From: a virus
Lineage: Duplodnaviria > Caudoviricetes
Virus record (IMG/VR): IMGVR_UViG_3300031998_000052
Location: 12,631-76,630 of that record
DNA length: 64,000 bases
Reading direction: 5' to 3' (one strand)
The position numbers were made by a program, and so were the translations under genes. The notes under the pieces were generated by a model. The model was not told the origin of the DNA. It saw nothing but the letters and a program-made list of their open reading frames with translations, and searched no databases. Below are positions 6,628 through 26,700 of this stretch, in pieces (the first letter of the stretch is position 1; every line of letters starts with the position of its first letter).

Positions 6628-7173
6628 ATGAAAAAAGTTACAATCGAAATCCCTGAGGGAAAGGCATTGAAGTTCAAGGACGGCGCCTACGTCCTGGTAG
6701 ATGACAACGTGATGGAGCGCATCAAGACCTTCGACGATGCGTGCCGCGAAGTGACCGGCAAGTCCGAGGAGGAGTGGCTGGCCGAGAATGAGACGGATAA
6801 GATGGAGCCGGACGTGCTGGCATACCTCAAGATGCGCATCATCGTTGCCGTCCTCAACGAAGGATGGAAACCCACGTTCGAGGATGGTGAGACTCGGTAC
6901 TACCCTTACTACTGGCACTACACCAAGTCCGAGTGGGAGGGCCTGAGCGCATCCAGGCGGAAGGAACTGGAGCCTACGGTCTGCCTCGTCGGCGGTAGCT
7001 CGTCTGACGGGTCGAAGTCGGGGCCGCTCTGCGTGAGCTCGCTCGACGCCTGGTCGGACGCGCGCTCGAGCCTCGGCGCCCGCCTTGCATTTAAGACGGG
7101 GGAACTCGCCCGTTATGCCGGGAAGCAGTTCTTCGACATCTTCAAGAAATTCTACTACGATGGAGTGCTTTGA
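6628..7173 (+). CDS. Remote DGR target protein carrying variable repeat VR2
   Basis: Encodes VCLVGGSSSDGSKSGPLCVSSLDAWSDARSSLGARLAF, a CLec-type VR matching the TR. Confidence 0.85.
   Translation: MKKVTIEIPEGKALKFKDGAYVLVDDNVMERIKTFDDACREVTGKSEEEWLAENETDKMEPDVLAYLKMRIIVAVLNEGWKPTFEDGETRYYPYYWHYTKSEWEGLSASRRKELEPTVCLVGGSSSDGSKSGPLCVSSLDAWSDARSSLGARLAFKTGELARYAGKQFFDIFKKFYYDGVL
6979..7089 (+). repeat. DGR variable repeat VR2
   Basis: 111-nt ungapped match to TR 25113-25223(-); 18 mismatches, 14 at TR adenines; all 12 mismatches in the last 72 nt are at TR adenines. Confidence 0.95.
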
Positions 7174-7624: not shown

Positions 7625-7969
7625 ATGAAAGCAAAACAACTCATGCTCGGAAACTACGCCCTATACAACGGGCTGGTTGTACGGGTCCGCAACATACATG
7701 ATAACGTGTTTCTCGACGGAGAGGATGAGTCTGTCGAGGTTGTGTACGATGACGGCGTTGTCGTTTTGGTGGATCCTTGTTCGCTTGAGCCGATTCCTCT
7801 CACGCCCGAAATCTTGGAAAAGAACGGGTTTTCAAGAAACGGTCTTGATATTGCCATTTTTGACAGGAAGGGAGGAGATGATTTCGTAGGTGCAGCAAAC
7901 TTGGAATTTGTCCACGAACTCCAGAACGCCCTTCGCCTCTGTGGAATAGAATACGAAATAACACTTTGA
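7625..7969 (+). CDS. Hypothetical protein, paralogue of 15887..16258
   Basis: Shared EPIPLT/EPLPLS and VHELQ..L..CGI motifs. Confidence 0.7.
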   Translation: MKAKQLMLGNYALYNGLVVRVRNIHDNVFLDGEDESVEVVYDDGVVVLVDPCSLEPIPLTPEILEKNGFSRNGLDIAIFDRKGGDDFVGAANLEFVHELQNALRLCGIEYEITL

Positions 7970-7972
7970 GAT

Positions 7973-8884
7973 ATGAGCAAAATCAAGATTGGCGCCAAGG
8001 TCACGGCGAAAGAGAGTCCTACAAAAGTGACCGTAAGCGGTACGTTCCAGGGATACGAACTCGAAGACCAGGAGGACCCCACGTCCATCTGCGGGAAGGT
8101 CTTCTACGTCAAGGACGGTAAGCTGTACCTTGCACATGTGTACGTTGACAGTATTAAGGTGTGTGATAGCGAGGATGAGAGGATAAGGAAAGAGTTATTA
8201 GATGCCGTTGATAAAGCAAGAGTCTTTGACATTGACAAGGATGTCGCAGATAGATGGACGGCTTGGCTCGAAAAGCAGAAAGAGCAGAAGCAAGAAATCA
8301 AGATTGTTATTCCGAAATTCCGAGTTGGAGATATTGTTATAAAATCCACAAAAGAGAAATGGGAAAACCCATGGAAGATAACGCACATCAGAGAAGACGG
8401 ATATAATATAGAGTCAGTTGATACTTACGGTGGAGGATTTATAGGATTCAGTTTTGAAGGTGAATACGAACTTGTAGAGCAGCCCGCAGAGTGGAGTGGG
8501 GAAGATGAGTCAGTTGTTAATCTTATTTTAAAAGAATTAGAACAGGACAAGAAGAACCAACCGGATTATAGTAGGCACTTCACAAGGTTAATTTCTTGGC
8601 TTAAGTTCCTTCCAAAAAGATTTAATTTTTCATCAAAGCAAGAGTGGGACGAGAATATTATTCGCAAAGCCATAAAAGAAGTTGGTTTAACCCAGCACCA
8701 AATAGATTGGTTCAAAATCAATGTATTTCCACCCAAGCAAGAGTGGAGCGAGGAGGATGAGGAAAATCTTAGTGATATAAAGTGTGCTCTTTATGATTAT
8801 TACGAAGAAGAGCGTGTGGAAGAACTCTATAATATGATCAAGTCCCTCCGTCCTCAGCCTCATTGGAAGTCGAGCGATGAGTAG
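7973..8884 (+). CDS. Mosaic hypothetical protein with repeated EW(S)xEDE modules
   Basis: AEWSGEDE, QEWDEN, QEWSEEDE repeats; composition becomes AT-richer within the gene. Confidence 0.7.
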   Translation: MSKIKIGAKVTAKESPTKVTVSGTFQGYELEDQEDPTSICGKVFYVKDGKLYLAHVYVDSIKVCDSEDERIRKELLDAVDKARVFDIDKDVADRWTAWLEKQKEQKQEIKIVIPKFRVGDIVIKSTKEKWENPWKITHIREDGYNIESVDTYGGGFIGFSFEGEYELVEQPAEWSGEDESVVNLILKELEQDKKNQPDYSRHFTRLISWLKFLPKRFNFSSKQEWDENIIRKAIKEVGLTQHQIDWFKINVFPPKQEWSEEDEENLSDIKCALYDYYEEERVEELYNMIKSLRPQPHWKSSDE

Positions 8885-22893: not shown

Positions 22894-23907
22894 TTATATG
22901 TTACTAATTATCGTAGCCCAAGGTAAATTAGGAATATCTCCAGACGTAATAAAGGCATAAGATTGGCTGTTATTCACTCGAATAACGACCTCAATCAACC
23001 CTCCGTTTTTCGGCCTACGATACGTACTCAATGACGTCCTTATGTATGCTTGGTTCTCTATATTTATGGCGTCACTGCAAATATACCCGCCACTTGTCAC
23101 GTTTATATGTAATCCGCCACCCCAATCATAACCAAACGGGAAATATGGGACAAGGAAAGAAAACCTACATCCATCGAGATCGCTGTTCGCCGGTATATGA
23201 ATATGAACACCATCGCTGTATTGTGACACCTGGCCGGTCAAGTCAATAAATTTTGCCGACGTGGATTTCAACTGATAATGATTTTCTGTTGTATTATGAG
23301 ACGAGCCATAGTTCACGACCTCAGAATACATATAAGTTAAATCGGAATTACCTAAAGCCACAAACGGTATGCGAAGACCTCCAGCAAATTCACCGCCATT
23401 GCAAAATAGATTTCCATTTTTATCAAATTTGGTTTTTGCATTAGCAGCAAGCGTTGAACCGAGAAAAAGAGGATAGTTCGTATCACCGCCCATGTCTGCC
23501 ACAACGGTATCACCATTTTTGACCTGAACGTGTTTTGCTACAAGGCTATTCACGTCGATATAGTCTGCTGATATTGCCTGCGCCAGAAGAACCGGCGTTA
23601 CTATCGGCTGGAACTGGTTTACATCCTCCCAGTACGTGTTGTCACTGAGAGGAATCAACTGATGGTCGGCCTGGTGTGTAATCTTGCATTTTCTGGCCAC
23701 GAAAGACGAATCGCCAATCATAGCCATTCCCATATTGCAAGCCACGTCAATTATGCGAACACCATCCGTCTCAAGAGAAGAGTCGTTCCTGTATTCCTTT
23801 CCGTCTTCCCAGAGAGAAATACGATAGGTAATACCTCCATTTCCGGTATCACCCTTTCTGGCCCTTGCGACAGTCTGACTGCCTTTAACCTTGACCGTGC
23901 CTGCCAT
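22894..23907 (-). CDS. Tail fibre/receptor-binding protein with AT-rich C-terminal half
   Basis: Start reassigned to MAGTVKVKG (ATG 23907); KGDTG motif; ISADYIDVNSLVAK; composition shift near 23560. Confidence 0.6.
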   Translation of the reverse strand: MAGTVKVKGSQTVARARKGDTGNGGITYRISLWEDGKEYRNDSSLETDGVRIIDVACNMGMAMIGDSSFVARKCKITHQADHQLIPLSDNTYWEDVNQFQPIVTPVLLAQAISADYIDVNSLVAKHVQVKNGDTVVADMGGDTNYPLFLGSTLAANAKTKFDKNGNLFCNGGEFAGGLRIPFVALGNSDLTYMYSEVVNYGSSHNTTENHYQLKSTSAKFIDLTGQVSQYSDGVHIHIPANSDLDGCRFSFLVPYFPFGYDWGGGLHINVTSGGYICSDAINIENQAYIRTSLSTYRRPKNGGLIEVVIRVNNSQSYAFITSGDIPNLPWATIISNI

Positions 23908-23914
23908 AAGACTC

Positions 23915-24262
23915 CTAATTATCGAGAGAATCCATGACCACATGGGCAATCTCCTTTGCTTTAGCCCTCCACTCCTGGAAAGCCTCCAGTTCGGCGGCGT
24001 GTTCGGGAGTATCGGAGCCATTGGCCAGGATAGCCTCCACCTGGTCCTGAGGGAACTTGTCGCGGACGATAGCAGACACGATCTTGCCGTATTCGACGGC
24101 CCCTTCGATGTCCACGTTCTCGAAGACCAGGACTTCAATTTCCTCTCCGTCCACTTCCTTGGTCTCCGTGTCGTAATCGAAGTTGATGCGGGTGATAGCG
24201 CCCTCGCGGAGCACTACGACGCCAGCGGGGACTTCCCCGTTGTAATCAGCATATACTTTCAT
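23915..24262 (-). CDS. Small tail-region protein
   Basis: YGKIVSAIVRDKF...FQEWRAKAK, resembling small tail-fibre-associated proteins. Confidence 0.7.
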   Translation of the reverse strand: MKVYADYNGEVPAGVVVLREGAITRINFDYDTETKEVDGEEIEVLVFENVDIEGAVEYGKIVSAIVRDKFPQDQVEAILANGSDTPEHAAELEAFQEWRAKAKEIAHVVMDSLDN

Positions 24263-24829
24263 AAGTCTATAAATTTGTACGTGAATTTTCCTCTTCCGAG
24301 ATCGACGCGGGTGATGCCCACGTTTTCGACCGGAAACACTTTTTGACCGGCCTGCTCTGCCTTCCGGCAGTCATCCAGGATGTTCTTCATCTGGAACGAA
24401 CTGATGGTGAACTTAATCTTCTCTCCGTCTTCCTTCTTCACCATGACCATGTACCGGTCGGTGTTCATCTTGGACGGGTCCCGCAGGTCCGGCGTTGGCA
24501 CGTTGGCCTCAAAATCAAGGACCGTGAGGCGCTGGTTCAGCACCTCAAGGATGTTACCTTTCCGGCACTCAAAGAACTTCTTCCCGTCCTTTGAACTGGC
24601 CTTCTCGATAGATATTCCTTTCTCAGCGAATCCCATGATTGGTTGTCCTGTTATTGTTTTCCAGAGTTGGGCGCAGTCTCCATACATGCACAAGCCCCGG
24701 TAACTGTCAATAATTTCCTTTCCTCTTCGACCGCTTGGCCTTGCCGCCTTTCTGAGAGCGCTGGATGGCTAACCGCAAGTTATCCTCGTCCGCAACCTTC
24801 TCCAGGATATGCCCTACTTTTTTCGTCAT
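24259..24829 (-). pseudogene. DGR reverse transcriptase remnant with internal deletion and frameshift, in frame with a ~125-aa C-terminal domain
   Basis: ATG 24829 gives MTKKVGHILEKVADEDNLRLAIQRSQKGGKAKRSK (RT N-terminus-like), stopping at 24707; another frame gives KEIIDSYRGLCMYGDCAQLWKTIT (RT C-terminus-like); no YxDD core between them. Confidence 0.8.
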
Positions 24830-24830
24830 A

Positions 24831-24838
24831 CAAAGATA
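24831..24838 (-). promoter_or_regulatory. Bacteroidota -7 box directly before the RT start
   Basis: TATCTTTG-T-ATG. Confidence 0.6.
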
Positions 24839-24839
24839 C

Positions 24840-25112
24840 GCATTTTTTTATTCCCTGCAATAGTGATACTGCCCGGGACGTTCGAGAGTGTCCATCGGGG
24901 TTCCACGCACGACGCTTACAACGCGCCGGTCAATGGGAACCACACGCTCGGACAAACCTACATTAGCCCCGCTCGCAGGCCCATACCTCCGGGCCGCTCT
25001 CCCGCATACGAGATGTTCTGACTCTCCGGCGCGACCTGCCGCCGGGGTCAAGGCTGAGGAGGTTCGCCGGCCGGTGTCTATCCGGCAAGGCGATGAAACA
25101 GGGTTTTCACTT
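24840..25112 (-). ncRNA. DGR RNA spacer between TR and RT
   Basis: GC-rich non-coding stretch with several short inverted repeats, in the position of the DGR spacer. Confidence 0.5.
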
Positions 25113-25223
25113 TGTATGGCGGGCGCCGATGTTCGAGTTCGCGTTCGACCAGGCGTTGTTCGAGTTCACGTAGAGCGGCCCCGACTCCGACCCGATAATC
25201 GAGCCACCGCCGACGAGGCAGAC
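25113..25223 (-). repeat. DGR template repeat (TR)
   Basis: AAC-rich (GTG AAC TCG AAC AAC GCC TGG TCG AAC GCG AAC TCG AAC ATC GGC GCC CGC); VR frame has an upstream stop and no start; aligns to both VRs. Confidence 0.95.
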
Positions 25224-25367
25224 CGAAAGAACTGGAACCACCGAGCGTACTATACCCCCTCCTGCCTACCACAAATCGGGCGCGGATGCAGCCGCCTTAG
25301 GAGCGACTGCCCCGTGCGTCCGTTGTGGATTTGGGTTGGTAAAGATGTTTCAAAGAACTACTGATTT

Positions 25368-26684
25368 TTACAGATCGGCCCCATCTACAATGGTCACTGG
25401 ACCATAATATGCAGGGCGGGCGCCGAGGGCCGAGGCCGAGCCCAACCAGGAGTAGGTCGAGTTCACGCAGAGCGGCCCCGACTGCGACCCGTAATTCGAG
25501 CCGCCGCCGACAAGGCAGACCTGGCCTGTGGCGTTGCCATAGAAGTAGTCAGACCAGGACTTGTTGCTGTCGCCACCCGTCACGGAAGTGGCAATCATGT
25601 CGAAGTATTCACCCTTGGTCATGACCTTGACATATCCCGAGGTGGTCAGGCGAGTCAGTTCGCGTAACTCACCGTCCGGATGGGAGGCAAGTTCGGAGGA
25701 AGAAGGAAGGCGGTTGCCCTTGTAGATATACACCTCGTCACCGTCCTGCCCGGAGTTGCCGCTGTTACCGAAGAAGATACCCTGGACAAACTCCCACTGG
25801 AGGTTCCACCAGTCCTCGATACCCAGAACAGAGACGTGCGTGGAATCGGCGTTGGCACCAGATGCGATGGCCACCGTACCGGAGGCATCACCCAGGTCCT
25901 TCGTCAGACCGGTAGTCTTGAGGACGGTCGATGCGTTCACGGTATCCCAGGAGAGACCGGAGGCACCACCTACGCCCTGACCGAGGCTGGCCTGTGCGTT
26001 TGCGTTACCCTGGGCCTCAGACAGGCACATAATCTCGAACCAGCGCAGGCAGTCGTAGTCCTTGAGGCCCCAGTTGGCACCGAAGGACTGGGCTGCGCTG
26101 AAATAGTCGCTGATGGTCTTGGACGAGGTGTCGAAGGTGACACCGGAACGGGACACCAGTTTTCCGCTGGCCAGGGAGCCTTTGTAGGCGCCGATGACCA
26201 TCCGCTTTCCATTGTCCGCGTTCGCGAGATAGTGGCCGGAGATGGGGAACTCTGAGCACCACAGGTACGGGATGCTCGTCTCGGCGTCCGTCACCACCAG
26301 GTAGTACAGACGGGGAGCGATGACAACCACGGAACCCCTGGTCTCGTCCAGGGTCGTACCGTCGGCGAAGACACCGGAGTTGTTCTTGTGCAGTTTGGCC
26401 GCACGACCGTTGGCATCCATCAGATACCGGCCCACCTTTGCCTTGTAGGAGTTGTAAGCCGCGATGTTGCCGATCATGCCCCAGGCGGGGCTGGTCTGCG
26501 TTGCGTCCTTGAGAGGGAATCCCCACGCTACCTGGTGGAGAAGTTCCGCCTGGCCTTCGTTCATGGCCGTCTCGAAGTCCTCCATCGAGATTCGGCGGAT
26601 GGACCCGCCGATCTCGACGATGAGGCTGTTCGATTTCAGCATGGACGAAACAGACGTTGCTGTTGCTAAATTCTTGTTTGCCAT
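25368..26684 (-). CDS. DGR target tail/receptor-binding protein with C-terminal CLec-fold VR1
   Basis: GIEDWWNLQWEFVQG and VCLVGGGSNYGSQSGPLCVNSTYSWLGSASALGARPAY. Confidence 0.88.
   Translation of the reverse strand: MANKNLATATSVSSMLKSNSLIVEIGGSIRRISMEDFETAMNEGQAELLHQVAWGFPLKDATQTSPAWGMIGNIAAYNSYKAKVGRYLMDANGRAAKLHKNNSGVFADGTTLDETRGSVVVIAPRLYYLVVTDAETSIPYLWCSEFPISGHYLANADNGKRMVIGAYKGSLASGKLVSRSGVTFDTSSKTISDYFSAAQSFGANWGLKDYDCLRWFEIMCLSEAQGNANAQASLGQGVGGASGLSWDTVNASTVLKTTGLTKDLGDASGTVAIASGANADSTHVSVLGIEDWWNLQWEFVQGIFFGNSGNSGQDGDEVYIYKGNRLPSSSELASHPDGELRELTRLTTSGYVKVMTKGEYFDMIATSVTGGDSNKSWSDYFYGNATGQVCLVGGGSNYGSQSGPLCVNSTYSWLGSASALGARPAYYGPVTIVDGADL
25410..25520 (-). repeat. DGR variable repeat VR1
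   Basis: 111-nt ungapped match to TR; 21 mismatches, 13 at TR adenines. Confidence 0.9.
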
Positions 26685-26700
26685 AACTTATGAAATTGGT

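Follow-up and report, generated by a model that had tools for sequence, protein, structure and literature searches.

Layout of the cassette

The window analysed here is a stretch of 64,000 nucleotides, bases 12631-76630 of a 76,630 bp virus contig with a CheckV completeness of 100%. Reading along its minus strand, we observe a tail-module gene of 438 aa, VR1, a hairpin, the TR, a spacer of 283 nt, an ORF of 40 aa and an open frame that ends at 24259 (Table 1). The source appears to be a gut or rumen Bacteroidales phage, the link to Bacteroidales coming from RT homologues on contigs of Bacteroidales MAGs, and its length and probable host group are those of the ~75-kb tailed Bacteroidales phages. 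Judged by the homology of its remnants to the RT of relatives, the cassette is a former member of the DGRs.

Table 1. Features of the cassette and of its second target, with positions in the window.
Feature	Position	Strand	Basis
DGR target gene 2, 181 aa, remote, on the opposite strand	6628..7173	+	VR2 core at 6978-7084
125-aa C-terminal domain of the RT reading frame, intact, phrog_19665, conserved Met	24259..24636	-	profile match, relatives
RT thumb remnant, last 28 codons of frame c	24637..24720	-	tblastn match; signs of relaxed constraint
Deletion junction	24721..24725	-	876 bp of L001 and 875 bp of L002 missing
RT N-terminal remnant, 35 codons	24725..24829	-	alignment to L001 RT residues 1-35, 91% identity
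TR-RT spacer, retained	24830..25112	-	within an 839-bp block 90.7% identical to L001
TR, 107-nt core, 5 adenines lost in the 5' third	25118..25224	-	comparison with the TRs of L001, L002, L017 and L020
Inverted repeat 3' of VR1, 6-bp stem and 4-nt loop, candidate target-recognition hairpin	25390..25405	-	sequence
VR1, 107-nt core	25415..25521	-	direct repeat with TR (25410-25521, 81%)
DGR target gene 1, 438 aa, tail-module protein, VR1 at C-terminus	25368..26684	-	phrog_5302 tail protein match, E 3e-35

A search of viral contigs with the protein of the first target identified homologues that lie upstream of a TR and an RT in two relatives, L001 and L002, with targets that are 84-93% identical. 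The counterpart in phage BI-TP1 is an annotated tail protein with an Mtd_N-like domain. The second target lies ~18 kb from the cassette and is also present in the complete relative G001. Of the two variable regions of the phage, one thus follows the tail genes and the other lies far off on the opposite strand, a layout shared with G001; in both targets the VR is at the C-terminus. The C-type-lectin-like fold expected around a VR has indirect support from the PHROG tail-protein match and from the Mtd_N-type annotation in BI-TP1. In the DGR of BPP-1 a hairpin follows the VR, and the hairpin here is placed alike. In searches of Pfam and NCBIfam neither target matched a family, nor did the 125-aa domain, and no match to Avd (PF05635) was found in the 76.6-kb record; Avd is absent from some DGRs.

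Within the spacer we observed a weak match to the Rfam family RT-3 on the correct strand (24989-25095, minus; 16 bits, E 0.43, gathering score 40.5). Eight relatives gave no such match; for them the search space was larger (64 kb), and a match of 16 bits would have had an E-value above the limit. It probably arose by chance, and we have dropped it as evidence.

The deletion and the reading frames of the RT

When the minus strand of the window was aligned by BLASTN to L001, the alignment stopped at 7957 and restarted at 8834, so that 876 bp are absent; against L002 it stopped at 7957 and restarted at 8833, a difference of 875 bp. RT codon 35 is the last one on the left arm, and the right arm opens with the last 28 codons of the thumb. 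The lost segment therefore spans RT residues 36 to about 328, and with it went every finger and palm motif and the greater part of the thumb. The 40-aa ORF (24829..24707, minus) consists of the N-terminal remnant, whose residues 1-35 are 91% identical to the same residues of the L001 RT, and of 5 out-of-frame codons that run to a stop at 24707. The piece downstream (24735-24637) corresponds to the last part of the RT thumb (segment c, residues 33-65), and because it sits in another frame the N-terminal ORF ends after these few codons. At the junction, which lies within a purine-rich stretch (24716-24735), two imperfectly similar purine-rich tracts coding for Lys and Arg meet with an exact overlap of only 3-4 nt at the crossover. 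This pattern suggests slippage or illegitimate recombination and not the collapse of a repeat by the assembler. A blastn search of the phage collection with 23900-26700 gave no match.

We found no second RT in the complete 76.6-kb record with the PF00078 (RVT_1) and phrog_1423 profiles. Since PF00078 is weak on this RT family, the search was repeated by tblastn with the RT pieces of the relatives against the whole genome. The first segment was matched over residues 1-35, the thumb segment over residues 33-65 and the last domain over its full 125 residues, and the palm segment (frame b, with motifs B and C) had no match anywhere in the 76.6-kb genome. Beside the TR there is thus no intact RT gene: residues 1-35, the last 28 thumb codons and the C-terminal domain are what is left. 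A gain of the RT by the relatives instead of a loss in the window was ruled out, as both ends of the RT persist in the window.

An earlier note on this DNA had claimed that the RT catalytic core is deleted, with about 35 N-terminal codons joined out of frame near 24716-24735, all palm motifs missing and, as an estimate, 0.8-0.9 kb lost. The alignment to the RT-bearing relatives bears out the deletion, puts the junction at 24721-24725 after codon 35 and agrees with the estimated length, and the tblastn search agrees with the loss of the palm. The note had also proposed aligning the fragments to the termini of intact RTs and looking for a cognate RT in the rest of the phage; both fragments do align, with a microhomology of 3-4 nt, and the complete record contains no such RT. 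The spacer, the TR and both targets, which it had listed as remaining, are all found, as the TR-RT spacer, the direct repeats and two target ORFs. The extent that it gave, 24659-24829, holds for the deletion and has to be revised at its end, where the C-terminal part runs past 24659 stop-free into the 125-aa domain.

In L001 and L002, ~1.45 kb of RT-coding sequence lies downstream of the TR. It is laid out in three frames (a, then +1, then +1), and the pieces match consecutive parts of phrog_1423. The palm frame of L001 has a sub-threshold match to RVT_1 (15.3 bits vs a cut-off of 29.6 bits); in P0001, which has the first two RT pieces in one frame, RVT_1 scores above the Pfam cut-off. We compared two sets of loci, one of RT loci from metagenomes and genomes and one of 72 loci from viral contigs. 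Both +1 changes are kept in all but two distinct sequences of the first set (L009/L021 and L033), at identities down to about 40%, and in 67 of the 72 loci of the second. Between L001 and L002, dN/dS is 0.05, 0.11 and 0.12 in the three RT frames, and at the second shift site the frame in which changes are synonymous switches exactly there. The ancestral RT is judged to be functional because dN/dS is this low in all frames and because the TR-VR mismatches of the relatives fall on adenines only. A shared pseudogene was considered for the three-frame RT and is ruled out by the dN/dS of 0.05-0.12, by the adenine-only VR variation in relatives and by conservation to ~40% identity. The window has lost both shift sites along with the deleted segment. 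Although the missing 876 bp is divisible by 3, the two remnants are offset by 2 in frame, the result expected from a three-frame layout.

Each downstream frame of the RT starts with a conserved in-frame ATG (L001 8430-8460 and 8686-8725), which is found at the same sites in about 90 related loci. The ATG of frame b lies 6-10 codons before the first conserved residue in 21 of 22 lineages, and that of frame c lies 13-23 codons before it in all 22. In the sequences inspected the ATG is made by an NAT codon of the upstream frame followed by G, although T is the last base of only 45% of the NAY codons in these genes. This ATG pattern suggests that, instead of using the two programmed +1 frameshifts proposed in PMC8008677, the RT could be split into parts that are initiated separately. 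Both shift sites are also preceded by purine-rich tracts that are rich in Lys and Arg. A few loci have fused frames. Frames b and c are joined in L033 (CZCB01016632.1) and L066, and L033 is without the Lys/Arg-rich tract there. Frames a and b are joined in L009/L021 (an ERZ808246 contig with 2.2x coverage), which has one G fewer in a G-run than relatives that are 97-98% identical. The fused-frame variants L033, L066 and L009 indicate that covalent fusion of the RT pieces is tolerated or is the functional form.

In every relative the thumb frame runs stop-free into the 125-aa domain, and the Met at the head of the domain is conserved. The window keeps this domain intact despite the loss of the RT core, with a dN/dS of 0.09-0.11 against L001 and L002. 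An AF2 model built from 21 sequences had a pLDDT of 78. Foldseek returned no match to the domain at E 1e-3 or better. A search of all against representative structures placed ssDNA-binding OB folds at the top (PRD1 P12, Z 5.0, rmsd 3.2, 89 residues), followed by SSB, PriB and Teb1 at Z 3-4.8. The model hints at an OB-fold-like domain, and we speculate that it might be an accessory factor of these Avd-less DGRs.

TR-VR mismatches and further RT lesions

Among the RT-bearing relatives, the mismatches in the 107-nt core are at TR adenines in 11 of 11 cases for L001, 14 of 14 for VR1 of L002 and 14 of 14 for the second VR in the genome of L002; L017 and L020 have the same adenine-only look in the aligned display. 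In the window, TR and VR1 have 19 mismatches, 11 at TR adenines and 8 elsewhere, and TR and VR2 have 16, of which 12 are at A and 4 elsewhere, all 4 where the TR itself lost an A. With A accounting for 17 of the 107 TR bases, the mismatches still gather on TR adenines as in a DGR, and the non-A residue is read as decay.

The TR has changed as well. At positions 20, 21, 27, 30 and 38 an A that is present in the TRs of all four relatives has been lost (three to G, two to T), which amounts to 5 of 22 adenines; the chance that five of five changes fall on A is ~3e-4. When the lost adenines are restored, all 14 of the VR2 mismatches and 14 of the 19 in VR1 are at A, and five non-A differences are left in VR1. 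Two of them, at positions 10 and 83, match sites at which the TRs of relatives are polymorphic, and instead of drift their origin could be another TR allele that served as template or that recombined with VR1; the other three, at positions 19, 71 and 78, are absent from all TR alleles. At positions 27, 30 and 38, which are not A in the present TR, neither VR agrees with it, and therefore no full-length homing from the present TR has occurred since the TR changed.

The five changes form a patch at 25187-25205 (minus; TR positions 20-38), with five adenine-only changes in 19 nt; neither present VR matches this patch, and the TRs of the four relatives do not have it. Because these changes carry the signature of adenine mutagenesis, the patch is most likely RT-made or VR-derived sequence that overwrote part of the TR, by mis-homing or VR-to-TR conversion. 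The present VR1 and VR2 were considered as its source and ruled out, since neither matches positions 27, 30 and 38.

The thumb remnant was compared over 26 codons with five relatives. Its pN/pS is 0.40-0.65 against them, vs 0.00-0.30 among those relatives, and it has another residue in place of a Trp that all five of these close relatives share. On these 26 codons, the remnant looks to be under relaxed constraint.

Since the 125-aa domain outlasts the deletion of the RT, it was used as a query against viral contigs, and two further RT lesions emerged. The first is in L094 and L095 (IMGVR 3300029755_000006 and 3300029421_000052), a human-gut lineage from two samples that is identical over the shared 3.8 kb. 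Compared with L072, which is 99.9% identical, 1,088 bp are absent. The gap opens ~80 nt ahead of the RT start and closes 21 codons short of the 125-aa domain; the join is at L094 2900-2975 and has a 3-nt overlap. The TR is identical to that of relatives, and the VR mismatches comprise 10 at A and a constant difference at the end of the repeat. For these reasons the RT loss of L094/L095 looks recent, and the element looks recently frozen. The second lesion is in L112 (2630-2650) and L113, both IMGVR 3300045988 contigs, where 11 bp encoding the catalytic box of motif C are absent and the frame is shifted; this deletion lies between two similar hexamers. RT loss recurs in this phage family, in the window, in L094/L095 and in L112/L113.

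Interpretation and comparison with known systems

The element is likely to be a decayed DGR of the Quimby/LoVEphage type that has lost its RT and is frozen. We take it to be switched off and drifting because of the non-A mismatches of the VRs, the loss of TR adenines and the relaxed thumb codons. The ancestor would have had a tail-module target with VR1, a TR, a spacer, a three-frame RT ending in the 125-aa domain and a second target 18 kb away. A single event of illegitimate recombination or replication slippage between two purine-rich Lys/Arg tracts would have removed ~876 bp. Without the RT of the phage, the TR RNA would no longer be copied into adenine-mutagenised cDNA, and both VRs would be locked in their last state. 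After the loss, VR1 would have gained its non-A differences and the orphan thumb codons would have relaxed, with the 125-aa domain still appearing constrained. The patch in the TR would have been overwritten by RT-made or VR-derived sequence either before or after the deletion. Counting against a frozen element, the 3' two-thirds of VR2 differs from the present TR only at adenines, which may reflect recent partial rewriting.

The earlier note had offered two outcomes, diversification switched off or an RT from another element acting in trans, and the first fits better: both VRs mismatch the TR at non-A sites, the TR is without five adenines, and the relatives that were counted are adenine-only. 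Continued diversification in trans would mean either that the RT of a related prophage or co-infecting phage acts on the TR RNA of the window or that the TR-RT complex of a relative homes into its VRs. The TR, the spacer (about 90% identical to L001), the 3' ends of both VRs and the VR1 hairpin are intact and could serve such a process. Homologous RTs occur on Bacteroidales MAG contigs, one of 235 kb, which indicates that resident prophages of this family exist, and one metagenome can contain several members of the family, as Ga0310696 does with L016 and L020. According to experiments cited by Wu 2018 (PMC5758913), the avd, TR and brt of BPP-1 act in trans when supplied on a plasmid. Compared with the present TR, the 3' part of VR2 differs only at adenines, and VR1 matches TR alleles of relatives at positions 10 and 83. 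Action in trans by the RT of a co-resident relative is feasible. However, the mismatches of both VRs at the non-adenine positions 27, 30 and 38 argue against full-length homing since the TR changed, and the non-A differences of VR1 at 19, 71 and 78, absent from all TR alleles, are of a kind that the counted RT-bearing relatives do not have. We therefore consider it unlikely that the window is still diversified in trans.

It is less probable still that the deletion is an artefact of assembly, or a minor defective variant picked by the assembler from a phage whose dominant form is RT-intact. The record is a metagenome assembly, and a search of the viral contig collection for the exact 31-nt junction sequence found no second copy, in a collection from which the record of the window itself may be missing. 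Against this, the joined sequences share only 3-4 exact bases, far below the k-mer of an assembler, and collapse of the graph is unlikely; the same contig has independent marks of decay in the TR adenine loss, the non-A VR mismatches and the relaxed thumb remnant. The small overlap and these marks together make an assembly error unlikely, and the comparable RT deletion of another lineage was assembled identically from two samples. A different question is whether the loss was selected instead of being neutral decay, being repeatedly favoured either for locking a good receptor-binding variant or for shedding a costly mutator. This concerns the cause only and is compatible with a frozen element, so that our judgement of it does not exclude that reading. 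Three independent RT lesions among roughly 70-75 loci screened with the 125-aa domain plus the window, and the presence of the L094 allele in two samples, would fit selection, but three events among that many loci are also expected from mutation and drift, and we regard a selected loss as rather unlikely. A broader proposal is that RT-null alleles are recurrent and possibly selected, hypermutation being turned off so as to keep a receptor-binding variant that works, and that the orphan TR and VR can later be rewritten by the RT or the TR-RT complex of a related phage in the same cell, the DGR being a function that is shareable at the level of the population; we give this rather little credence.

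The window holds a real loss-of-function allele of a known type of element and not a new mechanism. A survey of the cultured LoVEphage group scored a genome as DGR-positive only with an RT gene (PMC12629997), and because of this requirement RT-less remnants such as the window would go uncounted in it and in similar surveys. Together with the two further lesions, the window documents repeated RT loss in a widespread family of Bacteroidales phages. It also illustrates the aftermath of such a loss, in which VRs are not refreshed and acquire non-adenine changes, the TR can lose adenines and the RT codons relax. Alleles of this kind are natural RT knock-outs with which the value of targeted hypermutation for a gut phage can be examined.

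In the BPP-1 DGR (mtd-VR, avd, TR, brt), a TR RNA and adenine-specific mutagenesis diversify a tail-module protein in its C-terminal VR. The window follows the same DGR logic, including the small hairpin that comes after the GC-rich end of the VR. In contrast to BPP-1, the window phage has no Avd (PF05635), the RT of its family is in three frames and has a 125-aa C-terminal domain, and the RT core of the window is deleted.

The type of element is already described, as the DGR of the 'Quimbyviridae' and LoVEphage. In Quimbyvirus, the RT lies in three overlapping frames, for which two programmed frameshifts were proposed, and of the two VRs one follows the tail genes and the other is remote and on the other strand, in genomes with a median of 75.2 kb (Benler 2021, Microbiome 9:78, PMC8008677). 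The window phage resembles this family in genome size (76.6 kb vs the 75.2-kb median), in its probable Bacteroidetes hosts, in having the first VR at the C-terminus of the gene after the tail genes and in having the second VR far away on the opposite strand. Benler 2021 (PMC8008677) described active elements only, whereas the window is without RT residues 36 to about 328, has lost five TR adenines and has non-adenine VR mismatches. DGRs with a second, distal VR are also present in the cultured LoVEphage group (LoVEphage, BI-TP1 and Phocaeicola phage PV4-TP1; Nature 2025, PMC12629997). These phages differ from the window phage in that they come from the human gut, are only distantly related in sequence and have their RT, but the N-terminal segment of the RT is 44.6% identical and the order is the same, with tail protein, TR and an RT that in BI-TP1 is annotated as three CDSs.
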